From Eledone cirrhosa (taxonomy: Eukaryota), in contig OZ024744.1 of assembly GCA_964016885.1 (NCBI GenBank), forward strand, positions 126,232,001 to 126,296,000: DNA of 64,000 nt, read 5' to 3'. The notes below the pieces were generated by a model. That model had not been told where the DNA came from. It ran no database searches and saw nothing but the letters and a program-made list of their open reading frames with translations. Numbering within the stretch: the stretch's first letter is position 1; each line of letters begins with the position of its first letter. The position numbers were made by a program, and so were the translations under genes. Positions 2,392 through 44,189 of this stretch are shown piece by piece.

Positions 2392-2722
2392 ACCCCCTCT
2401 CTCTCTCTCTAGTAGTAGAGAGAGAGACAAAGAGAGAGAGAGAGATATAAACGTATAACCCTAACCCATCTCTCTCTCTCTATTTCTCCCCCCCTCTCTC
2501 TCTCTCTAGTAGTAGAGAGAGAGAGACAAAGAGAGAGAGAGATATAAACGTATAACCCTAACCCAACCCTAACCTCTCTCTCTCCCCCCTCTCTCTCTCT
2601 ATTCCCCCCCTCTCTCTCTCTCTCTAGTAGTAGAGAGAGAGACAGAGAGAGAGAGAGAGATAGATATAAACGTATAACCCTAACCCAACCCTAACCCATC
2701 TCTCTCTCTCTCTCTCTCTCTC
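2016..2722. repeat. Composite minisatellite: (CT)n-agtagtag(AG)n-atataaacgtat-(CCCTAA)-like, ~5 units
   Basis: atataaacgtataaccctaa recurs at ~2117, 2269, 2445, 2542 and 2664, with telomere-like CCCTAA/CCCAA tracts. Copy 2 version at ~39761-40240. Confidence 0.85.
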
Positions 2723-2864
2723 TTTGTTTTTAACATTGTTTTGTTTTTCTTTTCTTTTCTTATTCAGATGACAAACGGCAGAGGATACAACAGAAGAAAA
2801 GAACAAAGATAATTATTATTATTATTACTATTATTATTTGTTTTATTATAATCAAAATATGCTG

Positions 2865-3440
2865 TTAGTTAGATCTGCATTGCGTACATTTTATATAATT
2901 TATGCCAGTTCCTTTTCTGCATATCGAACATGGCCATTTCCCTGACGGAATAGAGTTTTGTCCTCTTTCGTGACACAAAGTACAGCCAGCGGCATCATTG
3001 CGGACAGACTTAATCCCGAATTGCACTGACACACTGCCTCGCAATACGGAACACCACACGTCTTTGATCTTCTTCCCGTCGATCAGCCTCCTTGCCATGC
3101 TAAGTACACCTGACGTCTAGCTTCTCTCTTAGCGGCGGCTTTATATTCTTCTCTACTCCCACTAATTTTCCAAGCATTCCATGCTAGCCTTTAGTCTCCA
3201 ATGGCCCGATCTACCGTGCTGTCCCACCACCATGTCACTCTCTGTCTGGTTGGAACTCTGATCCAGCCACAAGTTTAATCAGTAGCCTGCAATAAGTTGT
3301 CACATAAGAAAATCGAGTTCTCATGTATGTCATACGACTGTGAATCGTCTTCTTTTTCGTCATACACATATTGAAGGGCTTTCCTAAATTTCTATTTTAG
3401 TGAAATCTCTTTTAGCTTCCAGACCTTTCTTTTTTCCACA
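2865..3440 (-). mobile_element. Decayed RTE-clade LINE fragments
   Basis: Minus-strand peptide SGKWPCSICRKGTGINYIKCTQC matches the cysteine-rich RTE segment at 10710-10919. 3220-3370 matches the RTE segment at 28880-29077. Confidence 0.7.
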
Positions 3441-4294
3441 TCTTCCTGTATGTCTCAATCATACCTGGAGCTGTCCAACATGACCATTGAAATCCCCTGC
3501 TAGCATAACGATGTCTCCGTCCTGTCATTGTGGCTGTTTGTAAAAATTGCTTGTAAATGAAGTCTTTCTTTTCTTTACCTAGCAGAAGCAATTAACACTA
3601 ACCCAACTGTAACACTAACCCTAACACTAACTTATGCAGGCCTAGGTAAAGACAAGAAAGATAAAACAAGGAGTGATGCTTCTTGAATTTTGTGATGCAA
3701 GTGTTTTAACCATTTGCAAAACCAACTTCCACAAACCTGCCTCACTGCCGCCTAATAACCTACAAATCAGGCAAGCACAGAAGCCGGATTTCTCGGTAGT
3801 TAGGCAGCGAGACAGACAGATGGGGTGTGAAGTACCAGGGTGTGCCCCGGGGAGGAATGTTTCCCACAGCGTGGGTTGGTTGTTGGTGATGTCTCGGTTA
3901 TCTTGAGACGGAGTGAGACGTGCAGGAATACTCTCACGGAATCGCCAAATGAGGTTTATTTTTCAACATAGTCCCTGGAATGAAACAATGTGGTTATTAA
4001 GAAGAATTGAAATTAATGTAAGATTTCACAGATCTATGATCAATCCTTCACAGTCAGCTTACAAAGTTTTCAGCCAAACCTTGTGTATTTCCAACATTTC
4101 AAACCCTATCTAGGACTACATTATCTAATGTACAGTACAGTAGTTAGTATTAGTGGCTATCAGACATAGTGTATCTAAATGCAACATTTTTAACATTGTT
4201 TTTTTTTTCTTTTCTTTTCTTTTCTTATTCAGATGACAGACGGCAGAGGATACAATAGAAGAAAAGAACAATGATAATTATTATTATTATTATT

Positions 4295-4697
4295 GTTGTT
4301 ATTCCTTGAATCTCAGTCATTGATGTTGGTTAACTGGAAAGTCCGTTGGAATGAATATCAAGCCACTACCTGCAGCCTCAGATATTCAGGACGTATCGGA
4401 GGGTTCTTGCTGTTCCAAGCAAGCATGCCTTTTGAAGCGTTCCAAAAAGCGTGAAGGGGCCGATTTTCTTTAACCATCCCTGGAAACTTTTGGAGATGGA
4501 CAAAAAACTGGAACACAATAGACCTGACCTGGTGGTTGTGGACAAAGAAAAAAGATCGTGTCTGATTGTGGATGTGGCCTGCCCGTTCAACACGAGAGTG
4601 CAAGAGAAGGAGAGGGAGAAAATTAACCGATACCAGGACCTAAAGTGGGAGGTGAAAAGGATTTGGAACTGCCATGAAGTCAAAGTGATCCCGATTG

Positions 4698-4735
<38 letters not shown>
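4295..4735 (+). mobile_element. 3' fragment of a restriction-like-endonuclease non-LTR retrotransposon (R4/Dong-like) in an (ATT)n tract
   Basis: ORF 4451-4852 contains HNRPDLVVVDKEKRSCLIVDVACPFNTRVQEKEREKINRYQDL, a PD-(D/E)xK REL motif, running into (TTA)n. Copy 2 at ~41813-42253. Confidence 0.75.
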
Positions 4736-4738
<3 letters not shown>

Positions 4739-4769
4739 TATTATTTGTTTTATTATAATCAAAATATGC

Positions 4770-5292
4770 TGTTAGTTAGATCTGCATTGTGTACATTTTA
4801 TATAATTTATGCCAGTTCCTTTTCTACATATCGAACATGGCCATTTCCCTGACGGAATAGAGTTTTGTCCTCTTTTCTACTCATCAACACTCATTCGTGA
4901 CACAAAGTACAGCCAGCGGCATCATTGCGGACAGACTTAATCCTGATTTGCACTGACACACTGCCTCGCAATACGGAACACCGCACGTCTTTGATCTTCT
5001 TCCCGTCGATCAGCCTCCTTGCCATGCAAAGTACACCTGACGTCTAGCTTCTCTCTTAGCGGCGGCGGCTGTATATTCTTCTCTACTCCCACTAATTTTC
5101 CAAGCATTCCATGCTAGTCTTTAGTCTCCAATGGCCCGATCTACAGTTTCTGTCTCAACTCGTCTATGCTTGGTCGTTCCCGCACATTGACATTGCACAT
5201 CCAACGGAGCATGCTTGCTTCATTTCTCTCCAGCCGTCGCATGTCCTCTGCAGTTGCTGCCCGTGTCTCACTACCATGCAGCATCGCGCATC
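4770..5292 (-). mobile_element. Decayed RTE LINE fragments
   Basis: Peptide AMLHGSETRAATAEDMRRLERNEASMLRWMCNV is typical of RTE ORF2 C-terminal to the RT. 4770-5143 duplicates 2865-3215. Confidence 0.7.
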
Positions 5293-5301
5293 TAAACCTG
5301 G

Positions 5302-6172
5302 CCCTTACCCTAACCCCAACCTCTTTGGTTTTCGTTTTCTCGACGGCTAGCTGCATTTCGTGATCCGCCTTTCGATTGCGCTTCCGTCGCGGCAAAAGAA
5401 TTGCCTTTCCAGACCGCCGTCGCCCGACCGGACCCATGATAGAAGACGTTCGTTACCGTTGGAGCAACGCAAATTACTCCTCGGTTGACGCCAAAAACGA
5501 ACGCCTTCCCGCCTCGCGCCGCCTTCTCCTCGCCGACCCTCGGCCTCGACGATTAGCCACTTTCCGTCACAGCAGTAGATACGCGTCCGTCGTAATAGCC
5601 GTCATTTTAACGCAGGAGAAACGCCTAATTGCCCTGCACCGCGTTTGACGGCGATCTACGACGGCGACGATGCGCGCACTCTTCCTTGCTGCGACGAAGG
5701 TTTCGGCTTTTCGTCGTGGACCCGGTCAGGTCATGCCGCTGACCTCGCGTTACGGCGACGCGAGAAGACGTTCGTTACCGCTGGAGCAACGCAAATTACT
5801 CCTCGGTTGACGCCAAAAACGAACGCCTCGCGCCGCCGCTTCCTCCTCGGCCTCGACGATTAGCCGCTTTCCGTCACAGCAGTAGATACGCGTCCATCGT
5901 AATAGCCGTCATTTTAACGCAGGAGAAACGCCTTGACGACGATATACGACGGGTCGACGACGCGCGCACTCTTTCTGCTGCGACGAAGGTTTTGGCTTTT
6001 CGTTGTGGACCCGGTCGGGTCATGCCTCTGACCTCGCGTTGCGTCGCCACCGCCGCGGCGGGCTTGGGTTTAGCCGTAGCTACCCTCGTTTTGCCAACGG
6101 CGACGCGAGAAGACGTTCGTTACCGCTGGAGCAACGCAAATTACTCCTCGGATGAGGCCAAAAACGAACGCT
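5302..6172 (+). repeat. Orphan relic of the rDNA-cassette leader (short CCCTAA tract, partial 169-bp unit, two ~320-345-bp ETS-like units)
   Basis: Shares agaagacgttcgttaccgctggagcaacgcaaattactcctcgg (~5440, 5763, 6108) and ccgtcacagcagtag...cgtaatagccgtcattttaa with 13170-13550. Copy 2 at ~42820-43690. Confidence 0.8.
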
Positions 6173-6250
6173 GAAGAGATATTGTCCATGGATATCGGGA
6201 ATTTTACCCGCCCTAGATAGATAGATAGATAGGGATGTATGTATGTATGT

Positions 6251-6292
<42 letters not shown>

Positions 6293-6671
6293 GTATGTAT
6301 CTTTCTCATTCTCTCTGTATGTATGTATGTATGTATATATATATAATTATATATTTATAGACATCCTGAAAGCTTTTTAAATGTCTGAGAGATTGGCTAA
6401 ATATGTTTTGCAGGTATGACCAGTAAGAGAGAGGTAAGTTATTTCAAAACAATTCTTTGACCATTATTTTAAGGTACTATCTCAGTGTATTTTTAAATTG
6501 ACCTCTTGATAGGATGAAATGACCTGTATAATTTTTTTCATATTTAGATGGAATAGAAGAAAAACAAGAAAAATGAAATGAATTCAAACAGAAAATATAC
6601 ACCAATGCCAATGGAGGTATGATTTCAGTTTAATCTTAACCTAATGACCACTTTACAGAGTGTACTGGATA

Positions 6672-6754
<83 letters not shown>

Positions 6755-7212
6755 AGGAAGCTCCAACCGTTAAGGTTGTCTTTCCATTTATTAATATATT
6801 GTGTATTTACTCCACTAAACTGTTGAGTGCTTTATATCAGTTATAAAAAAATTTCAGCTTGTTGAATCCCAAAATAGTTGTTGAAACAGCCACAGCTCAG
6901 CCGTCGGGGTCCTGAATATTTATCATATATATATACGTATGAGTGTGTGTGTTTTGAGAATTAATAATTATATAAACAAGTTTGTAATGAACAATTTATT
7001 TCTTATCAAAACTGTATAAACATGATATTATTTACAGTAAGAATAACAATAATAATGATGGTTTCTAGTAAAGGTGGAAGGCCAGTAATTTGGGGGAGGG
7101 GAAAGTTGATTAAATCGAAGAGAGAAAGAAAGAAAAAACAGAACGGGAAGGAGAGGGGATGGCAAGAGGTCCGGTGTCGCAGGAGAGAGGGGAGGGTGGT
7201 TGAGCTTTGAGT

Positions 7213-7700
7213 CTAGGGCAAGAGGGCAGAAATGCTGCGCCCCACGGATAAGACGGCAAAAATATTCTCGCGGACGATGGCCAGAGATACCCAATGCAAC
7301 AACCACCCAACCTCGCGGTGTTCCCTCCTCAGATGGGCTGCTGACTCTCCGATCTTTTGGAGGAGCTCGGCAGTACAAGGTCCAAGTACTCCTGGGGTCT
7401 CGACGTTGACTGGTGCAGAGAGGAAGTGGCCGGACAATCCTCGGTATTTGTTTATTTTACGTTCTTCTGCGAGGTGGGCTGCGATGCCGGGGTTTGTGAC
7501 CGAAACGACTTGGAAACGAAGTTGTAGGCGGAGATTGTGTCGTAGCTGGTGGTGTCCCAGATGAGGGACCTACGTCCTTCGAATGGGAAGAGAGTGATTC
7601 CGTCGGGGCGCTTGCCATCTCCGGGACCTGTTGGCCCCAGTTGTGATGGGAAGCCAGCTGCGTCCAGGCTTCTTCTCAATATGTCGTTGACAACGACGTG
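7213..7700 (-). mobile_element. Decayed CRE-like non-LTR retrotransposon 3' fragment
   Basis: Peptides GDGKRPDGITLFPFEGRRSLIWDTT and VETPGVLGP...LLQKIG...SLAIVREN resemble the REL domain of CRE-clade elements; frameshifted. Copy 2 at ~44721-45208. Confidence 0.65.
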
Positions 7701-8245
7701 TATCTATTCAATAATTATTTGAATATTGAAATTTTAGGTTTAACTACCTTTTAAACCAAATACATTAAGAAAGGCATGACCAACACCACATCATTTTTAT
7801 TTCTATTTTGAAAGTAGGTTTATAAGTATTAAATTTCAGTAGATTCTTATATCCTTCATGGTGGTCTGGTGGGAGATATGAGAGATGGTGGAGGTTCTGG
7901 TCTGGGGTTCAATCCTGCTCAGGAGATACTCTAAGGGGGTTCATACTAAACTTCTTCAGTGTTTCTTATCTCTAGAGACAAATATATATACATAAGGTAA
8001 TCTGGTAAAGTTGTTAGAACATCACATAGAATTCTTTGTAGTATTTTTTCCAGTTCTTCAATCTGAGTTCAACTTTACTTTTCTTCCATTCGGGGTTGAT
8101 AATAACGTACCAGTCAAATACTAGGGGTTAATTCTTCCTCTATATCTCTTTCTCACTCTCTGTCTGTTTTATTAAGACCTGGAGAGGTGATGTACTCTAC
8201 CAGGTTTTATAATGAGTGATGGGGTCATACCTGCCTGCTACACCT

Positions 8246-8568
8246 CTGTGTACTAAGTGTAGCATATTATATCCTTGTTCAGGGCCTTCCTGACATTACT
8301 GTGTACTAAGGGTAGCATTTTATATCCTTGTTCAGGGCCATCTTAACATTGCTGTGTACTAAGTGTAGCATATTATATCCTTGTTCGGGGCCTTCCTGAC
8401 ATTAGTGTGTACTGAGTGTAGATTTTAACATCCTTGTTCTGGGCCTTCCTAACATTACTGTGTACTGAGTGTAGATTTTAACATCTTTGTTCAGAGCCTT
8501 CCTTACATTACTGTGTACTAAGTGTAGCATTTCATATACTTGTTCTGGGCCTTCCTAACGTTACTGTG
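8246..8568. repeat. 53-bp minisatellite, ~6 copies
   Basis: ctgtgtactaagtgtagcatattatatccttgttcagggccttcctgacatta recurs at 8246, 8299, and onward. Copy 2 at ~45754-46076. Confidence 0.9.
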
Positions 8569-8569
8569 G

Positions 8570-9345
8570 AAATAGTAGTTTATATCCAATATGTAATATA
8601 GATATGGATTCTACAGGACTAAAACTCATTAATATGAGGGGTATTAGTAGATTATATGCCATATTTAATAGAGAAATGGCTTCTACAAGACTAAAACTCA
8701 TTAATATGAGGGGTATTACAGTTTATATGCCATATTTAATACAGAAATGGCTTCTAAAGGACTAGAACTCTTTAAATTGAATAAAATAGTAGTATATATC
8801 CTATGTTTAATACAGAAATGCCTTCTAAAGGACTCATTAATATGAGGGTATTAGTAGATTATATAACATATTTAATACAGAAATGGCTTTTAAATTCAGG
8901 GACTCGTTAATTTGATGGAAATAGTAGTGTCTATGCAATATTTAATACAGAAATAGCTTCTACAGGACTAAAACTAATTAATATGAGGGGTATTAGTAGT
9001 ATATGTGCCATATTTAATACAGAGATGGCTTCTAAATGGAGGTATCTCATTAATTCGATTGAAATGGTAGTGTATATGCAATATTTAATACAGAAATAGC
9101 TTCTACAAGAATAAAACTCATTAATATGAAGGTTATTATTACATTATATGCCATATTTAATACAGAAATCGGTTCTAAAGGACTAGAACTCTTTAATTCA
9201 AATCAAATAGTAGTATAAAGCAATATTTACTACAGAAATGGCTTCTACAAGACTAAAAATCCTTAATATGAGGGGTATTGTTAGATTATATACCATATTT
9301 AATACAGAAATGGCTTCTAAATGAAGAAATCTCTTTAATTCGATA
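8570..9345. repeat. ~59-bp AT-rich minisatellite, ~13 diverged copies
   Basis: Recurrent atatttaatacagaaatggcttcta...ctcattaatatgaggggtatt. Copy 2 at ~46078-46853. Confidence 0.85.
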
Positions 9346-9999
9346 GTAATAGTAATAATAATAATAGTAATAGTAATAATACAGCCAATTTTCCACGCAA
9401 TACTTTTAGTTAGCACCCCGAACGCATAATTGGGAATATAATCACTTATTTCCTAATGTTTGTTGAGTGAGTTGGGAAAAAAAACTTGGGAAATATATTT
9501 TCAGGGTCTCAAAATCTTAAAGAGAAAAAAAAGTCCTGTGGAAGGTAGCAAAACAATTAGGAAGAAAATGGTTTGAAGTTGGTTGGTGAGTATAAGATTA
9601 CAGTATCTTGTTGATTTCTATAAAGTTTACTTTTAACTGAATTGGTAAAAATGGATAAATTAGAAGACACAATATAATAACTAATATTGTCTTCTAAAAC
9701 AGGGAATAAAAATATGTTGGTGTATTGGGGGGGGGGGGGGTAAACATGTGAGTTAATGGGAATGTTTTTGTTTGTTTTTATTGAAACATATTCAATCTAC
9801 AGATAGGTTGTTATAGTTATTTAGTCTCGGGTCTGCCATTATCTGCAGATTTATAATTGAGGGGTGTTCCAGGTGTGACCACCCTACATTATTCCTAGAG
9901 ATTGTTACTCCTTCATTCTTCAGTCATCTTGGTCTTCTTATGAGATGGTGGTGTAGTCTTATTTATTGTTAAGGTTATGGTCTTCCTTTGTCCACACTC

Positions 10000-10041
<42 letters not shown>

Positions 10042-10374
10042 AAAGGCTTCCTTCTCTGGAAAAAGATGATTTAATATTCACAACCATCTGTCTAATTGTT
10101 TTCTGATGAGAATAAAGTTAATCTTGCTTGTATGTCTACCTGATCAAATGACTGGCTGATATCTTGAAGTCATTTACACCACAGAACTGTAGGAGTCTTG
10201 ATCCCTCAAGCCATACCTCTAGCCATCATGTACTCCAAAAGAGTCTCACCTTGGTGCTACTCAACATGTCCATTAAATTTAGCAGCAAGGATGCCCTCTT
10301 CTTAGTGAGAGACAACTACAAGAGAGGTTCTTAGAGAAGAATAAGCCACTATAGTTAACTTTTGTTGACATAGA

Positions 10375-11065
10375 GAACCCCGATCTGTCATCTGGTGGTC
10401 CTTAAGGAAACTAGGTGTAGGGGAATGGCTTGTGAGGACAGTGCAAGCTATGTACAAGGGTGCTGTCAGTAAAGTGAGAGGAGGAATTCCAGAAACAAAG
10501 TAGGTGTACATCAGGGTTCGGTCCTCAGTCCGCTCTTGTTCATTATAGTCCTCCCTCCCTCCCTCCCTCCCTCCAAGCCATAACAGAGGAGGAGTAGTTT
10601 AAGACTGGATGCCCATGGGAACTTCTCTATGCTGACGATCTGGTTCTTATAGCAGAATCAGTAGAGGAGCTAGCTAGAGAATAAATTCTGGCTATGGAAA
10701 CAGCAGTAGTTGGAATCAAGAAGACTGAGAGTGAACCTAGCTAAGACAAAAGTGTTTATAAGTAGAAGAGAGGACAAAACTCTGATTCTGTCAGGGAAAT
10801 GGCCATGTTCGATATGTAGGAAAGGAGTTGGCATAAATTCTATGAAATGTAGTACGCAATGCAGATCTTGGCTACACAAGAGATGTAGTGGGATAGCAGG
10901 AAAACTGACTGACAGGTAGGGAGAAATACGTATGCAGTAGATGTACAGGGAAATTTGACAGAGATTGCAGTGATAGACACATTTTTCAAATGCAGGTGGG
11001 ATCTATAGAGGGAGTTGATAGCTTCTGATACCTAGGTGATCAGATTAGTAAGGGAGGAGGGTGAT
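10375..11065 (+). mobile_element. Decayed RTE LINE reverse-transcriptase fragment
   Basis: GVHQGSVLSPLLFIIV, CPWELLYADDLVL and ESRRLRVNLAKTKV, then WPCSICRKGVG...C..C..WLHKRC; stops and frameshifts. Copy 2 at ~47882-48580. Confidence 0.85.
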
Positions 11066-11592
11066 ATAAAATATATTGTTATCATGACTGTCTTTATTAT
11101 TTAAATTACCTCTGTCTATTTACAGATTTTACAGAGTGTACTGGGTGCTTTTATGATGGGAGCAGCAACTCTATACGATTTTACAGAGTGTACTTGGTGC
11201 TTTTATCATGGCACATGGCAGCAGCAGCAGCAGCAACTACGATTTTACAGAGTGTACTTGGTGCTTTTTACTCTGACATCAGCACTGAGGAAGTTGTCAT
11301 ATTTTCAGCTAAATTAATGAGTAGAAAAACCAAGTTTCTGCTACAAAAAATTCTCAGATTCAAGGGAGACATTCAGTTTAAGTATGGTATACTGTCACTA
11401 AGGCAGCAAATTGGCAGAGTCGCTAGAATATCAGATAGCATTCTTTACATTATTTGTTTCAGCTCTCTGTTCTCTCAATTCAAATCCTGCTCAGGTCAAC
11501 TTTGCCTTTCATCCATACAAAATAGATTAATAAAAGTACCAGTGTATTACTGGGGTCAATTCTTCTTCTAACTCTTCTGCACTTCCATTCTC

Positions 11593-11671
<79 letters not shown>

Positions 11672-11934
11672 GCTTCTTTAGAACACATCTGCTGTATTCA
11701 GACCTGGAGCGGAGATGGGCTCCACCAAGTTTTAAAAATTGCCCTTTAAGCGCTGTATGTCAATATGGTGCCCCTATGATTCCCTCCCTCAGGAGTTATG
11801 GGACCATAGATACTGTCAATTGTAAAGAATAACAGAGATATTCAGTGCTAGTGTGGTGTTCTGTCAGTTGTGGAGATTGATGAATCTAAACAGAAATATC
11901 AACAGCACTTTTCATTTCTGAGTAACACATTTGT

Positions 11935-12092
11935 TACCAAGTGCTGCATGGCTGGAATGAAAATCAGTGCTGTGAAAACCAAGACATTCATCCTCTCAAG
12001 GAAGCTTGTGCAGTGCACTCTACATGTAAATGGAGTCCCACTGAAGCAGGTAGAAAAGTTCATGTATCTCGAAGCTGTGTTCACGAGTGATG
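11935..12092 (+). mobile_element. RTE-type RT fragment
   Basis: AGMKISAVKTKT...LHVNGVPLKQVEKFMYL, the RT motif 6/7 region. Confidence 0.6.
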
Positions 12093-12230
12093 ACAGAGAC
12101 GGCAAAGGCACAACACACAACAGAAGAAAAGAACAATGACAATTATTATTATTATTATTATTATTATTTGTTTTATTAGTTTTATTATAATAAAAATTGT
12201 GCTGTTAGTTTGCTTGCTATACCATCATGT

Positions 12231-12318
12231 ACCCTAACCCTAAACCTAACCCCAACTCCAACTCTGACCCTAAACCTAACCCCAACCCCAACCCTAACCC
12301 TAACCCTAACCCTAACCC
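12231..12318 (-). repeat. Interstitial telomeric repeat (TTAGGG)n, partly degenerate
   Basis: ccctaa repeats with variants, abutting the 169-bp array at a shared CCC. Confidence 0.85.
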
Positions 12319-13238
12319 ACGATAGAAGACGTTCGTTACCGCTGGAGCAACGCAAATTACTCCTCGGTTGACGCCAAAAACGAACGCCTTCTCGACGGCT
12401 AGCCGCATTTCGTGATCCGCCTTTCGATTGCGCTTCCGTCGCGGAAAAAGAATTGCCTTTATAGGCCGCCGCCGCCCGACCGGACCCACGATAGAAGACG
12501 TTCGTTACCGCTGGAGCAACGCAAATTACTCCTCGGTTGACGCCAAAAACGAACGCCTTCTCGACGGCTAGCCGCATTTCGTGATCCGCCTTTCGATTGC
12601 GCTTCCGTCGCGGAAAAAGAATTGCCTTTATAGGCCGCCGCCGCCCGACCGGACCCACGATAGAAGACGTTCGTTACCGCTGGAGCAACGCAAATTACTC
12701 CTCGGTTGACGCCAAAAACGAACGCCTTCTCGACGGCTAGCCGCATTTCGTGATCCGCCTTTCGATTGCGCTTCCGTCGCGGAAAAAGAATTGCCTTTAT
12801 AGGCCGCCGCCGCCCGACCGGACCCACGATAGAAGACGTTCGTTACCGCTGGAGCAACGCAAATTACTCCTCGGTTGACGCCAAAAACGAACGCCTTCTC
12901 GACGGCTAGCCGCATTTCGTGATCCGCCTTTCGATTGCGCTCCCGTCGCGGAAAAAGAATTGCCTTTATAGGCCGCCGCCGCCCGACCGGACCCACGATA
13001 GAAGACGTTCGTTACCGCTGGAGCAACGCAAATTACTCCTCGGTTGACGCCAAAAACGAACGCCTTCTCGACGGCTAGCCGCATTTCGTGATCCGCCTTT
13101 CGATTGCGCTTCCGTCGCGGAAAAAGAATTGCCTTTATAGGCCGCCGCCGCCGCCCGACCGGACCCACGATAGAAGACGTTCGTTACCGCTGGAGCAACG
13201 CAAATTACTCCTCGGTTGACGCCAAAAACGAACGCCTT
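12316..13238 (+). repeat. 169-bp GC-rich tandem repeat (5 full units plus a partial); putative rDNA IGS/ETS subrepeat
   Basis: Units start at 12316, 12485, 12654, 12823, 12992 and 13164. The array ends ~360 bp upstream of the 18S 5' end. Confidence 0.9.
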
Positions 13239-13596
13239 CCGGTTCGGGCGACGTAAAAGTCTGTAGCCTTTTCGCCGATCCTCGACGATTATCCGCCTTC
13301 CGAACAACCGCCTTTCCGCCGTCACAGCAGTAGGTACTCGTCCGTCGTAATAGCCGTCATTTTAATGCAGGAGAAACGCCTAAATGCACTGCGATTGACG
13401 ACGATCTACGACGCGCTTACTCTTCCTTGCTGCGACGAAGGTTTCGTTCGGCTTTTCGTCGTGGACCCGGTCAGGTCATGCCGCTGATCTCGCGTTGCGT
13501 CGTTACCGCTGGAGCAACGCAAATTACTCCTCGTTTAACGCCAACATCGAACGCGCTTCGGTTCTCGGTCGTCGTTGTTTTGTTTCGTGCGGAAGA
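13239..13596 (+). other. 5' ETS-like leader
   Basis: GC-rich region directly before the 18S start, containing a further copy of the 169-bp core at ~13498-13555. Identity inferred from position. Confidence 0.5.
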
Positions 13597-13782
13597 TACC
13601 TGGGTGATCCTGCCAGTAGTCATATGCTTGTCTCAAAGCTTAAGCCATGCAAGTGGAAGTTCATGCCGTAAACGAAAATGGTGAAACCGCGAATGGCTCA
13701 GGAACCGGATCTAATCCTCGGGACCGTATTCCTCACCGCGAGGAGAGGATAACTGTGGCAATTCTAGAGCTAATACATGCAA
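13597..13782 (+). pseudogene. 18S: 18S rRNA 5'-end fragment (~185 nt)
   Basis: TACCTGGGTGATCCTGCCAGTAGTCATATGCTTGTCTCAAAG-CTTAAGCCATGCA...GTGAAACCGCGAATGGCTCA...GGATAACTGTGGCAATTCTAGAGCTAATACATGC are universal eukaryotic SSU 5' motifs. Collinearity then breaks. Confidence 0.93.
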
Positions 13783-13786
13783 TTGA

Positions 13787-16458
13787 GATCGGAGAGGGAG
13801 CGATCCGTCTGCTTGATTCCGATAACGAACGAGACATTCGTATCCGAAAGAACGTTTGTCTGGAAACTGGTGCAGTCAGTGAGTCGAAAAAAAAATATCT
13901 CGGTGGTAGTAGCAAATATTCGAACGAGACATTCGTATGCGAAAGAACGTTTGTCGGTGGTAGTAGCAAATATTCGAACGAGACATTCGTATGCGAAAGA
14001 ACGTTTGTCTGGAAGTGGCGATCCATGCCCGGTGGATAGTTGGTTCCGGGTTTTACTATGATTGTTGCAAAACAGAAACTTAAAGGGATTGACAGAATTT
14101 GCGATTCCAGAGAGAGGGCGATCCGTCTGCTTGATTCCGATAACGAACGAGACATTCGTATCCGAAAGAACGTTTGTCTGGAAACTGGTGAGTCAGTGAG
14201 TCGAAAAAAAAATATCTCGGTGGTAGTAGCAAATATTCGAACGAGACATTCGTATGCGAAAGAACGTTTGTCGGTGGTAGTAGCAAATATTCGAACGAGA
14301 CATTCGTATGCGAAAGAACGTTTGTCTGGAAGTGGCGATCCATGCCCGGTGGATAGTTGGTTCCGGGTTTTACTATGATTGTTGCAAAACAGAAACTTAA
14401 AGGGATTGACAGAATTTGCGATTCCGGAGAGGGGGCGATCCGTCTGCTTGATTCCGATAACGAACGAGACATTCGTATCCGAAAGAACGTTTGTCTGGAA
14501 ACTGGTGAGTCAGTGAGTCGAAAAAAAAAATATCTCGGTGGTAGTAGCAAATATTCGAACGAGACATTCGTATGCGAAAGAAAAATATCTCGGTGGTAGT
14601 AGCAAATATTCGAACGAGACATTCGTATGCGAAAGAACGTTTGTCTGGAAGTGGCGATCCATGCCCGGTGGATAGTTGGTTCCGGGTTTTACTATGATTG
14701 TTGCAAAACAGAAACTTAAAGGGATTGACAGAATTTGCGATTCCGGAGAGGGGGCGATCCGTCTGCTTGATTCCGATAACGAACGAGACATTCGTATCCG
14801 AAAGAACGTTTGTCTGGAAACTGGTGAGTCAGTGAGTCGAAAAAAAAATATCTCGGTGGTAGTAGCAAATATTCGAACGAGACATTCGTATGCGAAAGAA
14901 AAATATCTCGGTGGTAGTAGCAAATATTCGAACGAGACATTCGTATGCGAAAGAACGTTTGTCTGGAAGTGGCGATCCATGCCCGGTGGATAGTTGGTTC
15001 CGGGTTTTACTATGATTGTTGCAAAACAGAAACTTAAAGGGATTGACAGGATTTGCGATTCCGGAGAGGGGGCGATCCGTCTGCTTGATTCCGATAACGA
15101 ACGAGACATTCGTATCCGAAAGAACGTTTGTCTGGAAACTGGTGAGTCAGTGAGTCGAAAAAAAAATATCTCGGTGGTAGTAGCAAATATTCGTATGCGA
15201 AAGAAAAGATCTCGGTGGTAGTAGCAAATATTCGAACGAGACATTCGTAGGCGAAAGAAAAATATCTCGGTGGTAGTAGCAAATATTCGAACGAGACATT
15301 CGTATTCGAAAGAACGTTTGTCTGGAAGTTGCGATCCATGCCCGGTGGATAGTTGGTTCCGGGCTTTACTATGATTGTTGCAAAACAGAAACTTAAAGGG
15401 ATTGACAGAATTTGCGATTCCGGAGAGGGGGCGATCCGTCTGCTTGATTTCGATAACGAACGAGACATTCGTATCCGAAAGAACGTTTGTCTGGAAACTG
15501 GTGAGTCAGTGAGTCGAAAAAAAAAATATCTCGGTGGTAGTAGCAAATATTCGAACGAGACATTCGTATGCGAAAGAACGTTTGTCGGTGGTAGTAGCAA
15601 ATATTCGAACGAGACATTCGTATGCGAAAGAACGTTTGTCGGTGGTAGTAGCAAATATTCGAACGAGACATTCGTATGCGAAAGAACGTTTGTCTGGAAG
15701 TGGCGATCCATGCCCGGTGGATAGTTGGTTCCGGGTTTTACTATGATTGTTGCAAAACAGAAACTTAAAGGGATTGACAGAATTTGCGATTCCAGAGAGA
15801 GGGCGATCCGTCTGCTTGATTCCGATAACGAACGAGACATTCGTATCCGAAAGAACGTTTGTCTGGAAACTGGTGAGTCAGTGAGTCGAAAAAAAAATAT
15901 CTCGGTGGTAGTAGCAAATATTCGAACGAGACATTCGTATGCGAAAGAACGTTTGTCGGTGGTAGTAGCAAATATTCGAACGAGACATTCGTATGCGAAA
16001 GAACGTTTGTCTGGAAGTGGCGATCCATGCTCGGTGGATAGTTGGTTCCGGGTTTTACTATGATTGTTGCAAAACAGAAACTTAAAGGGATTGACAGAAT
16101 TTGCGATTCCGGAGAGGGGGCGATCCGTCTGCTTGATTCCGATAACGAACGAGACATTCGTATCCGAAAGAACGTTTGTCTGGAAACTGGTGAGTCAGTG
16201 AGTCGAAAAAAAAATATCTCGGTGGTAGTAGCAAATATTCGTATGCGAAAGAAAAGATCTCGGTGGTAGTAGCAAATATTCGAACGAGACATTCGTATGC
16301 GAAAGAAAAATATCTCGGTGGTAGTAGCAAATATTCGAACGAGACATTCGTATTCGAAAGAACGTTTGTCTGGAAGTTGCGATCCATGCCCGGTGGATAG
16401 TTGGTTCCGGGCTTTACTATGATTGTTGCAAAACAGAAACTTAAAGGAATTGACAGAA
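13787..16458 (+). repeat. rRNA-mosaic satellite, ~8 monomers of 317-372 bp
   Basis: Equivalent positions at 14040, 14357, 14676, 14994, 15353, 15725, 16042 and 16401. Monomers contain 18S motifs (GAAACTTAAAGGGATTGAC, GATTCCGGAGAGGG, TTCCGATAACGAACGAGAC) and a 28S motif (ATCTCGGTGGTAGTAGCAAATATTC). Confidence 0.92.
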
Positions 16459-16494
16459 TTTTCGAATCGACATCAACTCGGCTACGGCTATCCC

Positions 16495-16830
16495 GTCGAG
16501 TACGAGAGTATCGCGGGATCAGAGCAACGGTTTGCTAGGCTGCCTCTGAGCGATAACGGCTGAACGCCTCCTCTAAGCCGGAACCCTAGCCGGACCCGAG
16601 TTGTTTTTCGACAAGCGTCTCGACCTTCTTAAGGCCCATGCCTTAGTTTGGCGATTGCCGTCCGTTCGCCGACGGCGGCAGCGTCAGCGGAAATGCCATT
16701 CTGTGACGACTACGACGATTCGTCGTCGTCCATTCGATTTCCTGAAAGAGATAGAGACTAAAGTGATCAAATTGTTCGGAGTTACGTGCTTAGTAGAGCA
16801 GCTACCACACTGCAATCTATTGAGAGTTTT
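16495..16830 (+). pseudogene. 28S: 28S rRNA 3'-end remnant
   Basis: AGTACGAGAG (sarcin-ricin loop core, 16499), CTGAACGCCTC..TAAG (16560) and TAGTAGAGCAGCTACCACACTGCAATCTATTGAGAGT (16791-16828) occur in the expected LSU 3' order. Confidence 0.8.
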
Positions 16831-17870
16831 CTGACGAACGATACAATCCGCCCACGTGGCGCCAGAAAGGGAGAAGAAAAGAAAAGTTAGACGCCGCCGA
16901 TCGATCGGTTCGTTGTTTTACGTGTACACAGCTTGTGTGTGTGTCTGTATGTGATACAAGCCGCCTATCCGTCTTCCAAGTAAGTTTTGTGTGTAGACTG
17001 CGGAAAGAAATCCAATCCGCCGTCTAGGCGGTTCTGCCGCCGACCCATACTTTTGCGAGTCGCTCCCGGGAAAGACAGGCGGCAAGACGGCGTGTATACA
17101 CGACGCCTTCCGTCTTCCGCCTCGAACCCGGGCAAACGTTCCTTTATTCGTCCACGCCTTCCCGCTTCGATCGCGAGAAAGTAATCAATCTGTTTTGTGT
17201 GTGTGTCTGTGTGTGATACAAATTTGTTTTCTTAATTTGATAACCATGAATTGTTTCAACACCGGCCCTTTTAAGGGCCACTTATATTTTCAATAATCAG
17301 TTTAAATGGGTTGCACCGTAGCCACTTGGTAATACACTGCAAATCTCCCGTCAATCTATGAAGGTTTTGTAGTAGATTAGATCAAAACACAATCAGCAAG
17401 ACAGTAATGGAATGAATAATATAAACATTTGTTTATAATTAAAGCCTTAAGATGTCCCTCCCTCCCTCCCTTCCTTCCTTCCTTCCTTCCTTCCTTCCTT
17501 CCTTCCTTCCTTCCTTACGATATACACTTTAATAACATTGAAACTTATTTAATAAGTTTAAATTTTAAACACTTTTTATTCAGACGTACCGCGATAAGTA
17601 ACTAGATATGTTCTAACGAATAATCCGCGATGTGGCGAGGATTACCGCGATAGGAAATTAGATACGTTCCAAAGAAATATCCGCGAAAAGTGAACCGCGA
17701 TATAGCGGGTTCACCAGCCAGTGTATTACTGGTACTTTATTTTATCGACCCCCATAAGGATGAAAGGCAAAGTTAACTGTGCAATAACAAAGGGAGATAA
17801 CCTCGTCTTTTTTTTTTTACGGAGTTATTTCCCTTTAAATTTTATCTATTACTTATGATGATACAATTTA

Positions 17871-18004: not shown

Positions 18005-18273
18005 GGTCTGAGTTCAAATCACGCCGAGGAGGTTAACTTTGCCTTTCATCCTTACGGGGTCGGTCGGAAAACGAACCATTCCCGGTTCGCTTTCGAAGCG
18101 GGTTTCCGAAAACAGCGCTTCTCTCGACCGGGCCCGTCGTCCGCTCGGCGGTGGTTTTCATCGTCCCAGGCACGGCTAACAGGCGGAGACGGGACAAACG
18201 CGCGTGTTCCTTTTTTTATCAGCCGCAGCGCCGTTCGTATATATGCTTAGGTTGTTTTTTTTTTTAAATATCC

Positions 18274-18504
18274 TAAGTTAAGTTGGGGCTAAGTTAAGTT
18301 GGGGCTAAGTTAAGTTGAGGTTAAGTTGAGTTGGGGTTAAGTTAAGTGGGGGTTAAGTTAAGCTGGGGTTAAGTTAAGTTGAGGTTAAGTTAAGTTGGGG
18401 TTAAGTCAAGTTGGGGTTAAGTTAAGTTGGGGTTAAGTTAGGTTGGGGTTAAGTTAGGTTGGGGTTAAGTTAAGTTGGGGTTAAGTTAGGTTGCGGTTAA
18501 GTTA
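18274..18504 (+). repeat. G-rich telomere-like 16-bp repeat (TTAAGTTAAGTTGGGG)n, ~14 copies
   Basis: Read directly; variants include TTAGGTTGGGG. Confidence 0.85.
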
Positions 18505-24810
<6,306 letters not shown>

Positions 24811-24909: not shown

Positions 24910-25944
24910 TCGTATCCTCCTTTGGCAATGTGTAAAATGTTAGCGAGATCGAGTGAACAATACACAAGTTATAATACTTTACAGACGGGACTTATACAGT
25001 AGATGTAGCAAAATGCGTAGATTACGATTCTTGAGACGAGATTAAAATATACGATTAGGGGATACTTTAAGAAGACGAGTAGATGTTTGAGTAGATTTAG
25101 CTGCTTTTTCTAGCATTTTTAGTTATACTTTGAAGCACATTTTTTTTGTTACTATTATATTAAAAGTTATCTGGTTACGTTATTTGACTGGTATTTCTAG
25201 CATTTTACAAGGACCACGTGTGTGTTTTATTTAAGGAAGATCTAGTTGTTATTTCTGATATTTTCTTCATCAAGTTAGTTGCTATTTCCTGCATCCTCTT
25301 GAAGACAAGAAATAATAATGAATTAGCTGCTGTTTCTAGTAGGTTCTATGGTAGTGATGAGCGTGGGAGGGAGGTTTGACTGCTATTTTTAGCAGGTTCT
25401 AAGGCATTGAGGTTTATGTTTTACGAGAGATTTGGCTGTTATTTCTAACATGTTATAATGGAGAGAGAGAGAGAGTATAAGATATACAGAGAGAGGGAGT
25501 ATAAGATATAGAGAGAGGGGAAACGGCCGATGTTTACGTTGAGAAAACCTAATAAAATGTTATAAATGGGTTTATAAAGAATAGAATGAGATAAACAAGA
25601 CAAAGTTAGATAAAATAAATCAGCTGTAAGGATATTATACGATATATTTATAATATTTTAATATATTTTTCCTGGTCGTCTGCTGCCATTGATAGAGAGA
25701 GGAGTGGTGGGAGGTAGCCATAACAACCGTGGTAGCAGCACTGAGGTTTGTTTTTAAAGAAGTGAATACAAGAAAAACAAGCAACTAAGAATATTAATCT
25801 CTTAAACCCTTCAAGATGTGTATGACAAGAAAGAAGACGTTTTAGAGTCGTATGACATAGATGATAACTGGAAATTCTTACGTGACAACTTACTGCAGGC
25901 TACTGAAGAAACTTGTGGCTGGAGCAGAGCTCCGACCAGACAGA
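24910..25944. repeat. 1035-bp direct repeat, copy A
   Basis: tcgtatcctcctttggc...gctccgaccagacaga recurs at offset 3062 (27972-29006). Confidence 0.93.
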
Positions 25945-27971
25945 AGTACATGTGCGGACACTCATTGGCTGTGCGTGGTATGCATTTCAGCAAGATATCT
26001 CCGTAACATCAAGAGTTATGGCTGTGGAGGCACACCTAGTCAAACGTAAACAAGCTCTGGAGCGTATACGCTTCGCGATTTTGTTTACGTTTGACTAGGT
26101 GTGCCTCCACAGCCACAACTCTTGATGTTACGGAGATATCTTGCTGAAATGCATACCACGCACAGCCAATGAGTGTCCGCACATGTACTTCTAATTACAC
26201 ATCGATCCGTCAACATCCGGCCGGCCCACGATCGACGCACAGGGCCGGATGGCCCGTTTGCAGTGAATTTTCACCGGAATCGATCTGTAATTACTGGTAC
26301 ATGTGCGGACACACATTTGCTGTGTGTGGTGTGATTTTCACGAAAAACTGCCCATGCTAAATGAGGAAGCTGAAGTCCGCCGGCGAATGGTGTGCTTCGA
26401 AGAAAACTAATTCGAAAATGACCGTTTGCAGGCGGAGTAACCTTTTCGATCGTGGGCCAGCCGCCCGTGGTGGGATACATCTGTAATTACTGGTACATGT
26501 GCGGACACACATTTGCTGTGTGTGGTGTGATTTTCGAGAAAGACTGCCCATGCTAAATGAGGAAGCTGAAGTCCGCCGGCGAATGGTGTGCTTCGAAGAA
26601 AACTAATTCGAAAATGACTATTTGCCGGCGGAATCACCTTTTCGGTCCTGGTCCGGCCGGATCTTGCCGGATCGATCGGAAATTTGTGGACCATGTTCGG
26701 AAGGCCATTGTGCATGTGTGGTGAAAAAAATTTGTGTCGAAATCTTCTCGGAAAATAACGGATCGCCGGCGGAGATTGCCATTTCGATCGTGGGCCGGCC
26801 GGATCTTGTCGGATCGATTCGGACATATGTGCATCGTGTTCGCAAGGCCCTTGTCTATGTGTGGTGTGATTTTCATAAAGAAATTCCGAAAAACCCAGTT
26901 TTAAATCTGATTTCGCCAAAGAATTTTGGCTATCAGATCGGGTTGAAAGGTATGGTTTCAGGTCGATCTGAAAGTCTAAAATGGAATTCACTCGGTTAGC
27001 TAACTATTGATATATCGGAGATATCTTTCTGAAAATCACACCACACACTCCCAATGAGTGTCTGCACATGTACCAGTAATTACAGATGGATCCCACCACG
27101 GGCGGCCGGCCCACGATCGAAAAGGTTACTCCGAAGCACACCATTCGCCGGCGGAATTCATTTAGCATGGGCAGTTTTTCTCGAAAATCACACCACACAC
27201 AGCCAATGAGTGTCCGCACATGTACCAGTAATTACAGATGGATCCCACCACGGGCGGCTGGCCCACGATCGAAAAGGTTACTCCGCCTGCAAACGGTCAT
27301 TTTCGAATTCGTTTTCTTCGAAGCACACGATTCGCCGGCGGACTTCAGCTGCCTCATTTAGCATGGGCAGTTTTTCTCGAAAATCACACCACACACAGCA
27401 AATGTGTGTCCGCACATGTACCAGTAATTACAGATCGATTCCGGTGAAAATTCACTGAAAACGGGCCATTCGGCCCTGTGCGTCGATCGTGGGCCGGCCG
27501 GATGTTGACGGATCGATGTGTAATTAGAAGTACATGTGCGGACACTCATTGGCTGTGCGTGGTATGCATTTCAGCAAGATATCTCTGTAACATCAAGAGT
27601 TATGGCTGTGGAGGCACACCTAGTCAAACGTAAACAAGCTCTGGAGCGTATACGCTTCGCGATTTTGTTTACGTTTGACTAGGTGTGCCTCCACAGCCAC
27701 AACTCTTGATGTTACGGAGATATCTTGCTGAAATGCATACCACGCACAGCCAATGAGTGTCCGCACATGTACTTCTAATTACACATCGATCCGTCAACAT
27801 CCGGCCGGCCCACGATCGACGCACAGGGCCGGATGGCCCGTTTGCAGTGAATTTTCACCGGAATCGATCTGTAATTACTGGTACATGTGCGGACACACAT
27901 TTGCTGTGTGTGGTGTGATTTTCGAGAAAGACTGCCCATGCTAAATGAGGAAGCTGAAGTCCGCCGGCGAA
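25945..27971. repeat. Second block of the foldback/palindromic satellite
   Basis: Matches 20485 onward at offset 5460. Palindrome centres at 26054-26080 and ~27638-27664. Confidence 0.93.
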
Positions 27972-29006
27972 TCGTATCCTCCTTTGGCAATGTGTAAAAT
28001 GTTAGCGAGATCGAGTGAACAATACACAAGTTATAATACTTTACAGACGGGACTTATACAGTAGATGTAGCAAAATGCGTAGATTACGATTCTTGAGACG
28101 AGATTAAAATATACGATTAGGGGATACTTTAAGAAGACGAGTAGATGTTTGAGTAGATTTAGCTGCTTTTTCTAGCATTTTTAGTTATACTTTGAAGCAC
28201 ATTTTTTTTGTTACTATTATATTAAAAGTTATCTGGTTACGTTATTTGACTGGTATTTCTAGCATTTTACAAGGACCACGTGTGTGTTTTATTTAAGGAA
28301 GATCTAGTTGTTATTTCTGATATTTTCTTCATCAAGTTAGTTGCTATTTCCTGCATCCTCTTGAAGACAAGAAATAATAATGAATTAGCTGCTGTTTCTA
28401 GTAGGTTCTATGGTAGTGATGAGCGTGGGAGGGGGGTTTGACTGCTATTTTTAGCAGGTTCTAAGGCATTGAGGTTTATGTTTTACGAGAGATTTGGCTG
28501 TTATTTCTAACATGTTATAATGGAGAGAGAGAGAGAGTATAAGATATACAGAGAGAGGGAGTATAAGATATAGAGAGAGGGGAAACGGCCGATGTTTACG
28601 TTGAGAAAACCTAATAAAATGTTATAAATGGGTTTATAAAGAATAGAATGAGATAAACAAGACAAAGTTAGATAAAATAAATCAGCTGTAAGGATATTAT
28701 ACGATATATTTATAATATTTTAATATATTTTTCCTGGTCGTCTGCTGCCATTGATAGAGAGAGGAGTGGTGGGAGGTAGCCATAACAACCGTGGTAGCAG
28801 CACTGAGGTTTGTTTTTAAAGAAGTGAATACAAGAAAAACAAGCAACTAAGAATATTAATCTCTTAAACCCTTCAAGATGTGTATGACAAGAAAGAAGAC
28901 GTTTTAGAGTCGTATGACATAGATGATAACTGGAAATTCTTACGTGACAACTTACTGCAGGCTACTGAAGAAACTTGTGGCTGGAGCAGAGCTCCGACCA
29001 GACAGA
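27972..29006. repeat. 1035-bp direct repeat, copy B
   Basis: Duplicate of 24910-25944; this copy continues into the RTE fragment. Confidence 0.93.
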
Positions 29007-39278: not shown

Positions 39279-39334
39279 TTTGTACCCTGCTCGCAGTCTA
39301 TGATGGTGTGTAGAGGGTGGCAGGTTGTTCTGGT

Positions 39335-39489
39335 TTAGTTTCCCAGAGTTGTAGCAGTTTTTACATTGCCAGTTATTGTGGGTAGATCACACTCAGACCA
39401 GCTGGTATCTCTCTTCCACGTTTCACCCGCCTTGACAAACCTCCAGATCTGCCCATCATCACGCAGACTGAAACTTTCATCTTGTGCTG
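39335..39489 (-). CDS. C-terminal remnant of putative LINE ORF1
   Basis: Open frame AQDESFSLRDDGQIWRFVKAGETWKRDTSWSECDLPTITGNVKTATTLGN* from the element's truncated 5' end to TAA at 39337-39335, overlapping the ORF2 frame. Confidence 0.55.
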
Positions 39490-39740: not shown

Positions 39741-40126
39741 GTGTGTGTATATATATATATCTGTCTCTCTCCCTGTCTCTCACTCTCCCTCTATCCCCCC
39801 TCTCTCTCTCTGTCTCTCTCTCCCCCCCCTCTCTCTCTCTAGTAGTAGAGAGAGACAAAGAGAGAGAGATATAAACGTATAACTCTAACCAAACCCTAAC
39901 CCAACCCTAACCCCAACCCTAACCCTAACCTAACCCTAACCCATCTCTCTCTCTCTCTCACCCCCTCTCTCTCTCTCTAGTAGTAGAGAGAGAGACAAAG
40001 AGAGAGAGAGATATAAACGTATAACCCTAACCCAACCCTAACCTCTCTCTCTCTTCTCTCTCTCTCTCTCCCCTCTCTCTCTCTATTCCCCCCTCTCTAT
40101 TTCCCCCCCCCTCTCTCTCTAGTAGT

Positions 40127-40157
<31 letters not shown>

Positions 40158-42215: not shown

Positions 42216-42256
<41 letters not shown>

Positions 42257-43768
42257 TATTATTTGTTTTATTATAATCAAAATATGCTGTTAGTTAGATC
42301 TGCATTGTGTACATTTTATATAATTTATGCCAGTTCCTTTTCTACATATCGAACATGGCCATTTCCCTGACGGAATAGAGTTTTGTCCTCTTTTCTACTC
42401 ATCAACACTCATTCGTGACACAAAGTACAGCCAGCGGCATCATTGCGGACAGACTTAATCCTGATTTGCACTGACACACTGCCTCGCAATACGGAACACC
42501 GCACGTCTTTGATCTTCTTCCCGTCGATCAGCCTCCTTGCCATGCAAAGTACACCTGACGTCTAGCTTCTCTCTTAGCGGCGGCGGCTGTATATTCTTCT
42601 CTACTCCCACTAATTTTCCAAGCATTCCATGCTAGTCTTTAGTCTCCAATGGCCCGATCTACAGTTTCTGTCTCAACTCGTCTATGCTTGGTCGTTCCCG
42701 CACATTGACATTGCACATCCAACGGAGCATGCTTGCTTCATTTCTCTCCAGCCGTCGCATGTCCTCTGCAGTTGCTGCCCGTGTCTCACTACCATGCAGC
42801 ATCGCGCATCTAAACCTGGCCCTTACCCTAACCCCAACCTCTTTGGTTTTCGTTTTCTCGACGGCTAGCCGCATTTCGTGATCCGCCTTTCGATTGCGCT
42901 TCCGTCGCGGCAAAAGAATTGCCTTTCCAGACCGCCGTCGCCCGACCGGACCCATGATAGAAGACGTTCGTTACCGTTGGAGCAACGCAAATTACTCCTC
43001 GGTTGACGCCAAAAACGAACGCCTTCCCGCCTCGCGCCGCCTTCTCCTCGCCGACCCTCGGCCTCGACGATTAGCCACTTTCCGTCACAGCAGTAGATAC
43101 GCGTCCGTCGTAATAGCCGTCATTTTAACGCAGGAGAAACGCCTAATTGCCCTGCACCGCGTTTGACGGCGATCTACGACGGCGACGATGCGCGCACTCT
43201 TCCTTGCTGCGACGAAGGTTTCGGCTTTTCGTCGTGGACCCGGTCAGGTCATGCCGCTGACCTCGCGTTACGGCGACGCGAGAAGACGTTCGTTACCGCT
43301 GGAGCAACGCAAATTACTCCTCGGTTGACGCCAAAAACGAACGCCTCGCGCCGCCGCTTCCTCCTCGGCCTCGACGATTAGCCGCTTTCCGTCACAGCAG
43401 TAGATACGCGTCCATCGTAATAGCCGTCATTTTAACGCAGGAGAAACGCCTTGACGACGATATACGACGGGTCGACGACGCGCGCACTCTTTCTGCTGCG
43501 ACGAAGGTTTTGGCTTTTCGTTGTGGACCCGGTCGGGTCATGCCTCTGACCTCGCGTTGCGTCGCCACCGCCGCGGCGGGCTTGGGTTTAGCCGTAGCTA
43601 CCCTCGTTTTGCCAACGGCGACGCGAGAAGACGTTCGTTACCGCTGGAGCAACGCAAATTACTCCTCGGATGAGGCCAAAAACGAACGCTGAAGAGATAT
43701 TGTCCATGGATATCGGGAATTTTACCCGCCCTAGATAGATAGATAGATAGGGATGTATGTATGTATGT

Positions 43769-43810
<42 letters not shown>

Positions 43811-44189
43811 GTATGTATCTTTCTCATTCTCTCTGTATGTATGTATGTATGTATATATATATAATTATATATTTATAGACATCCTGAAAGCTTTTTAAAT
43901 GTCTGAGAGATTGGCTAAATATGTTTTGCAGGTATGACCAGTAAGAGAGAGGTAAGTTATTTCAAAACAATTCTTTGACCATTATTTTAAGGTACTATCT
44001 CAGTGTATTTTTAAATTGACCTCTTGATAGGATGAAATGACCTGTATAATTTTTTTCATATTTAGATGGAATAGAAGAAAAACAAGAAAAATGAAATGAA
44101 TTCAAACAGAAAATATACACCAATGCCAATGGAGGTATGATTTCAGTTTAATCTTAACCTAATGACCACTTTACAGAGTGTACTGGATA

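Follow-up and report, generated by a model that had tools for sequence, protein, structure and literature searches.

A mosaic satellite of 18S, ITS1 and 28S fragments forms the interior of a hollowed rDNA unit in Eledone cirrhosa

In the genome of Eledone cirrhosa, we found that a tandem array of short mosaic monomers is the interior of a hollowed rDNA unit, in which 5′ETS repeats and 18S nt 1-191 come before the array and the 28S 3′ end and spacer come after it. The array lies in a 64,000-nt stretch of DNA, here called the window, to whose positions the coordinates below refer unless they are marked as host coordinates. The monomer, ~317 bp long, contains six fragments that all derive, in sense orientation, from the 45S unit of the host itself: 18S supplied three of them, 28S two and ITS1 one. 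An earlier note on this DNA had proposed that several fragments of host rDNA were joined out of their native order and then amplified, and our analysis bore this out: six donors were found, and their order is non-collinear with the host, containing three backward jumps (E→C, F→G and G→A). The same note took the array for a free SSU+LSU satellite; the array instead fills the middle of a hollowed rDNA unit, which itself belongs to a ~38-kb macro-repeat, and ITS1 is among the donors. The explanation that we favour, and that we regard as probable rather than secure, is that a promoterless rDNA fragment lost most of its interior through deletions and back-jumps guided by microhomology, that the remnants closed into a 317-bp monomer, and that the result was amplified as an inert satellite. 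The main features of the window are listed here:

2456-39930, no strand assigned: one ~37.5-kb macro-unit, mostly non-rDNA junk, in tandem
5336-6171, forward strand: second, separate 5′ETS-derived block in the macro-unit, 82-93% to host
12231-12318, forward strand: (TAACCC)n-like run (TRF), adjoining the 5′ end of the rDNA-derived segment
12315-13239, forward strand: 169-bp 5′ETS repeat, 5.5 tandem copies, host about -1782 to -1603 from 18S
13240-13552, forward strand: more 5′ETS pieces with small deletions, 4.5% substitutions relative to host
13553-13787, forward strand: 5′ frame of the array, ETS -43 to 18S nt 191, 224 matches and 9 mismatches
13788-16465, forward strand: mosaic array, 8 monomers, order A-B-C-D-(E-C)n-F-G
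16470-16884, forward strand: 3′ frame, 28S 3′ end with several small deletions, Rfam RF02543 at 62.5 bits, 7.9% substitutions
16935-17190, forward strand: 3′ spacer pieces, ending ~80 nt short of where the candidate start motif described below first recurs in the spacer
18068-18274, forward strand: isolated 28S piece, host 4888-5092, 3.1% substitutions
49837-64000, forward strand: next hollowed unit, with an array of 13.4 kb and a 3724-bp higher-order period, continuing beyond the window end

The frame pieces stand in native rDNA order on both sides of the array; Rfam places the 18S gene start upstream of it and the 28S gene end downstream, and spacer sequence as far as 2.5 kb past the 28S end also belongs to the frame. 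When arrays were tokenised, those with a start (11) opened from the 18S 5′ piece and those with an end closed through F-G into the 28S 3′ piece. The junction with the TAACCC run was identical in all seven other copies examined, and a marker word of the 169-bp repeat was present in 3-11 copies per locus (8 loci). The unit does not hold complete 18S, 5.8S and 28S genes: what it holds is 18S nt 1-191, the 3′ end of 28S and, from the interior, ~200 nt in scraps, and no rRNA at the Rfam gathering score was found in the 64-kb window. In addition, TAACCC-like runs precede both ETS-derived blocks of the macro-unit (5301-5335 and 12231-12318), and a 16-bp telomere-like repeat (18274-18504) lies downstream of the isolated 28S piece.

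The hollowed unit lacks the motif at which transcription of the host rDNA probably starts. A candidate start motif lies at host -2190 to -2150 and recurs in each ~710-bp spacer subrepeat, with 18 copies within a 30-kb stretch of C12; its position, its repetition and what we take to be the TATA-GGG consensus suggest that it is the probable Pol I start. The motif was found in 15 of 15 host rDNA loci, all chosen for the motif, and gave zero matches at up to 6 edits in the 64-kb window and no hits in the macro-array (38 loci, 300 kb). The rDNA-derived segment begins at least 200 nt downstream of the motif position, next to the TAACCC run. We considered the 169-bp repeat as an amplified promoter and rejected it, because the repeat sits inside the 5′ETS, downstream of the probable start motif. 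Each 169-bp repeat carries a TATA-like word (12453, 12622, 12791, 12960 and 13129) gained by substitutions relative to the host, which could be chance or a new promoter.

The donors of the monomer were assigned against an intact host 45S unit on C12, with an 18S of 2876 nt followed by 5.8S and 28S in a 22.5-kb repeat, and host coordinates were counted from 18S nt 1. The example copies of the blocks are:

14419-14436, forward strand: block A, 18S nt 575-592, 17/18
14432-14470, forward strand: block B, 18S nt 2042-2080, 37/39, E 1e-12
14155-14173, forward strand: block C, ITS1, host 3165-3183, 19/19
14174-14213, forward strand: segment D, ~40 nt, without assignable donor
14214-14252, forward strand: block E, 28S nt 2083-2121 (host 6280-6318), 38/39, E 9e-14
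14330-14353, forward strand: block F, 28S, host 5589-5615, local score 34.5
14353-14414, forward strand: block G, 18S nt 1843-1900, 82% with indels, E 5e-11

TRF resolved the array into periods of 317-359 bp with 94-97% matches, plus a 54-bp subrepeat, and the copy number of (E-C)n ranged from 1 to 7 over the 197 monomers counted. Block B matches 18S nt 2042-2080 at 38 of 39 positions in the first array copy. Among 200 dinucleotide shuffles of one monomer, the best match was at most 33.7 bits. Blocks B, E and G (58-67 bits) and C (35.6 bits) were equalled by none of these shuffles, and A and F (29.2 bits) were equalled by 4% of them and, in gapped local alignment, each scored above all of 300 shuffles. 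For segment D, the gapped local alignment search gave a best score that 49-63% of shuffles equalled (P 0.5-0.6), and an origin in 5.8S, 18S 430-453, 28S 5627 or inverted ITS1 was non-significant in each case. Altogether, ~200 of 8650 interior bases remain (~2%), as the six blocks. A coding role of the array was rejected, the open reading frames there being products of the repeat.

Alignment to the host 45S unit confirmed four of the donor assignments proposed in the earlier note, namely SSU ~1110-1155, ~380 and ~1300-1330 in approximate yeast numbering and the LSU at the LR7 primer site. The block it had placed weakly at SSU 880-960 proved to be the ITS1 piece, block C. Its last two blocks, given separate donors just downstream of LR7 and at SSU ~1275, are one 28S piece (F) running into the 18S piece G, and neither of those two donors is needed.

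Our results suggested that microhomology took part in building the mosaic, as had been proposed, given one clean junction, one shared word and the excess microhomology of the flank deletions. The A→B junction shows a clean 5-nt microhomology, and a 10-nt word with just two occurrences in the host interior is common to the ends of B and E; the CATG and GGT junctions of the original proposal were not confirmed. Exact overlap exists today at one of the seven junctions tested. At the other six, 1-11 bases match neither donor exactly, partly because of later substitutions. In the flanks, nine deletions of at least 5 nt had a mean microhomology of 2.6 nt versus 0.77 expected, beyond the 99.9th percentile, in a small sample (n = 9) in which some gaps may be host changes. 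The four flank pieces diverge from the host by 3.1-7.9%, with 32 substitutions to A/T versus 13 to G/C, and the substitutions of the 18S 5′ piece fall on positions common to the Rfam and host sequences. The divergence of the blocks from host rRNA was roughly 4-6% in the alignment tally, similar to that of the flanks.

Other rDNA copies in the same genome carry deletions of 360-1800 bp, and the long ones among the 19 loci analysed retain hundreds to thousands of bases between deletions. Neither breakpoint hot spots nor intermediates were found among these 19 loci, and of their 36 breakpoints a single one lay 10 nt or less from the edge of a block (P 0.65). None of the 19 loci has a chimeric junction, and therefore no intermediate supports a stepwise path. 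In a copy at C2 ~114.065 Mb, a 2.2-kb deletion begins where block E ends (host 6317), and at another rDNA locus a 1-kb deletion ends 23 nt before block B; over the 36 breakpoints, such deletions near E and B are non-significant.

The hollowed unit is part of a much larger repeat. Positions 2456-13239 are repeated at 39931-50764 with 99% identity, and macro-units on C28 are spaced at a median of 37.8 kb (42 intervals). Their content is mostly microsatellites, other tandem repeats and transposon pieces. The idea that the macro-unit is a whole rDNA repeat with a long spacer was rejected, since just three of its segments had counterparts in all or most of the six host units compared. On C28, the units form a single, large, nested and homogenised macro-array of 1.8 Mb (124.69-126.47 Mb). 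This macro-array begins at a 200-N assembly gap, and the counts are a floor: at least 43 arrays on C28, of 0.7-19 kb (median 5.8 kb), with 256 kb in total and ~775 monomers. In the whole host assembly of 3.0 Gb, there are 59 exact 18S-array junctions and 61 exact array-28S junctions (7 and 8 contigs, respectively), located mostly at C28 124.7-126.5 Mb, once on C18 and otherwise on unplaced contigs. The hollowed arrays on C28, C18 and unplaced contigs stand outside the true rDNA arrays; of true 18S, at least 11 full matches were scored elsewhere, on C2, C4, C12 and C25. The copy on C18 (6.70-6.76 Mb) is a lone rearranged macro-unit, in which the segment is cut at window position 16775 and joined to window position 9524.

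Short reads agreed with the assembly. In three runs from one sample, possibly the source of the assembly, contigs cross the array-28S junction with 0 differences and extend over the non-rDNA flank, at depths of ~4000-4170 versus 3373-4145 for host 18S/28S contigs. By contig depth, which is a rough measure, the hollowed unit is roughly as numerous as true rDNA. The cores of 204 monomers differ by a mean of 1.2%, the monomers comprise 25 haplotypes, and 231 nt of the frame (13560-13790) are identical in all 10 loci compared; this low core difference and identical frame point to a recent spread of the unit. Length variants are still segregating within arrays, with small deletions and duplications. 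That all this is an assembly or library chimera is exceedingly improbable: the three confirming runs are indeed one sample, but the exact junctions are numerous and spread over several contigs, the arrays vary widely in length, the monomers fall into many haplotypes, the array-28S junction is crossed at high depth, and monomer contigs also appear in runs of other studies. The three runs examined of 16 such runs contained near-identical monomer pieces at depths of ~2-36 beside rRNA of other organisms; we rejected them as evidence for related species, as they fit carry-over or environmental DNA. In sum for the earlier proposal, the blocks align above chance, the host rRNA is non-collinear with the monomer and short-read contigs contain the junctions. 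One short-read run with deep monomer coverage and no contig on the window-type 18S 5′ part was considered as RNA, a view rejected because it and two further runs cover the non-rDNA flank evenly, as in DNA; a missing contig on the 18S 5′ part in short-read runs proves nothing. Another run, with library type not on record, yielded host 28S contigs and 0.60 of the monomer words, with no spacer repeats and no contig over 16340-16524.

The surviving scraps are biased to the conserved rRNA cores. Five of the six donors lie within mature rRNA and four reach a cross-eukaryote identity of at least 0.7. The mean identity of the donors was 0.66 versus 0.32 for the interior (P 0.011, or 0.04 with segment D counted as unconserved). 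This profile was drawn from 42 of 78 environmental eukaryote rDNA contigs, those of at least 2 kb, with the 1.24-kb R2-site insert excluded and the 28S 3′ end, where outside sequences number 0-5, kept outside the test. Donor G+C was lower, 0.50 versus 0.58, a marginal difference (P 0.06) that accounts for the bias marginally at best. The core bias is not predicted by plain deletion and counts against reading the unit as inert. In addition, retention of 2% of the interior at 3-8% divergence is extreme, and the inert reading leaves both this survival and the bias unexplained. The extreme interior loss, the core bias and the lack of intermediates leave room for a single template-hopping event or for selection.

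Even so, judged from the sequence, the hollowed unit is most likely an inert satellite. A promoterless rDNA piece would have left the true arrays, after which its flanks decayed, as is visible in their 3-8% substitutions biased to A/T and in their deletions with excess microhomology. Within the interior, forward jumps would represent deletions, and each backward jump would represent either a duplication or a deletion that reached the next tandem unit. The 10-nt word common to the ends of B and E may have made the E-C subrepeat. The G→A jump would have closed the 317-bp monomer, followed by expansion to 0.7-19 kb per unit, and the whole ~38-kb segment may then have been amplified and homogenised, recently. 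The ~60 copies in the assembly were likely spread by unequal exchange.

A rather improbable alternative is that the mosaic arose during repair of an rDNA break, in a single event or a few, by a polymerase or reverse transcriptase that switched among short templates, possibly fragments of pre-rRNA, with later amplification being neutral. Templated insertions at DNA breaks are a known process, and six blocks of 18-58 nt, all sense and including an ITS1 piece, with most junctions holding 1-11 bases that fit neither donor exactly and without intermediates among the 19 loci, are consistent with such an origin; the bias to conserved cores would also fit protected RNA fragments. However, exchanges within a tandem array would just as readily give blocks of the same strand, the flanks display a stepwise deletion process, the arrays still vary by small deletions and duplications, and the frame contains spacer DNA from well past the 28S end.

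The core bias, together with the retention of both rRNA ends, also bears on whether a new or read-through promoter drives the unit and its retention or amplification was favoured because the RNA presents many conserved rRNA cores, as small-RNA precursors or as decoys of rRNA-binding factors; a small-RNA or decoy role had been raised in the earlier note. The exact matches of one monomer to host rRNA (34 of 318 21-mers and 18 of 318 26-mers), an abundance roughly equal to that of true rDNA and the TATA-like word gained by the 169-bp repeat would be in keeping with this, but we consider it improbable: the probable Pol I start motif is missing, the 18S 5′ piece is substituted at positions that Rfam and host share, the blocks are no better conserved than the flanks, the monomer gave no folding signal on either strand (z -0.29 and +0.09), and the cassette takes up little of the 38-kb unit, which is rich in junk and is amplified as a whole. 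A slim chance may be given to a second rDNA-sized gene family derived from rDNA, in which the hollowed unit would multiply conserved cores, with a new promoter in the amplified ETS repeat, and supply small RNAs or decoys for ribosome production or rRNA-binding factors. Similarly slim is the chance that the 1.8-Mb macro-array has a chromosomal role, as a centromere, a heterochromatin block or a nucleolus-associated anchor, with the rDNA cassette as a passenger or a supplier of binding sites. One large, nested and homogenised array on C28, whose start abuts an assembly gap, and the further copies on unplaced contigs would suit such a role, and degraded rDNA tends to lie near human centromeres (PMC5381670); against it, a rearranged copy is found on C18 too, and the units are long and rich in microsatellites and transposon pieces.

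With head-to-tail homogeneous monomers, above-chance homology to host rDNA and a location outside the true arrays, the unit resembles rDNA-derived satellites, and with its decay relative to host rDNA and its high copy number, it resembles amplified rDNA pseudogenes. It departs from the former in having six donors rather than the single contiguous one of the tomato and PcP190 pattern. The IGS-derived satellite of tomato arose from damaged rDNA by recombination and segmental duplication, with loss of the neighbouring rDNA (Jo et al., 2009; PMC2679016), and in both cases a satellite grew out of damaged rDNA units. In tomato, a single IGS subrepeat serves as the monomer and the coding part was eliminated (PMC2679016), whereas here the monomer is an 18S/ITS1/28S mosaic framed by both rRNA ends. 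The PcP190 satellite of frogs likewise has tandem monomers carrying rRNA-coding sequence; it stems from one contiguous 120-bp 5S-like region, is common to several families and can be transcribed (PMC11675491), in contrast to the six 45S-unit donors here and a unit known from one genome.

Non-functional rDNA about as numerous as functional rDNA also occurs in Cycas revoluta, where amplified 45S pseudogenes make up ~50% of copies, and divergent rDNA in Podisma, as summarised in a review (PMC10462631). Their units are heterogeneous and mutated in that account, and those of E. cirrhosa are homogeneous, ~98% deleted inside and endowed with an inner satellite. Human rDNA units displaced outside the true arrays decay to junk (Robicheau et al., 2017; PMC5381670), and degrading copies outside true arrays occur in the present genome too; unlike these mosaic units, the human ones are near full length and are not described as re-amplified or scrambled. 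Our survey of the openly accessible literature brought up no multi-donor 18S+ITS1+28S monomer.

These findings outline a route from rDNA to satellite on which a few percent divergence suffices to turn an 8.6-kb rRNA gene into a 317-bp mosaic monomer, with the frame preserving the history. The unit seems to be present in about the same number as true rDNA; it will therefore distort counts of rDNA copies, FISH with 18S/28S end probes and the mapping of rRNA-derived small RNAs in E. cirrhosa. Its unique junctions make expression directly testable, and if the unit were expressed, the conserved-core bias would suggest an RNA gene of a new kind, born from rDNA.

Several further elements were observed in and around the rDNA. 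The 28S of the C12 reference unit has a 1.24-kb insert at the R2 site (host 7897-9132), which is shared by several assembled rDNA units; an rDNA copy at C1:80.94 Mb is without it. At C2 ~166.8876-166.8925 Mb, the R2 site is interrupted by ~5 kb of inserted sequence containing a stop-to-stop frame of 1214 aa, likely a full R2 element. The R2 target (host 7897/9132) is not among the blocks, and the array does not qualify as an R2 decoy. In the macro-unit, a LINE-type element at 36513-39386 (reverse strand) has a 957-aa open frame with endonuclease and reverse transcriptase domains (PF03372, PF14529, PF00078); it is present in several macro-units (also before 124.71 and 126.31 Mb) and was therefore co-amplified with the array. 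Nested 196-bp and ~1584-bp repeats, partly inverted, occupy 18506-22206 and 25942-27972, and their copy number differs among macro-units. The Rfam Histone3 stem-loop at 17259-17303 scores above gathering; we rejected it as a histone 3′ processing signal, as it forms one arm of a MITE-like palindrome that recurs in 127 exact copies, many of them arranged as inverted pairs on C18 at 4.9-12.7 Mb.
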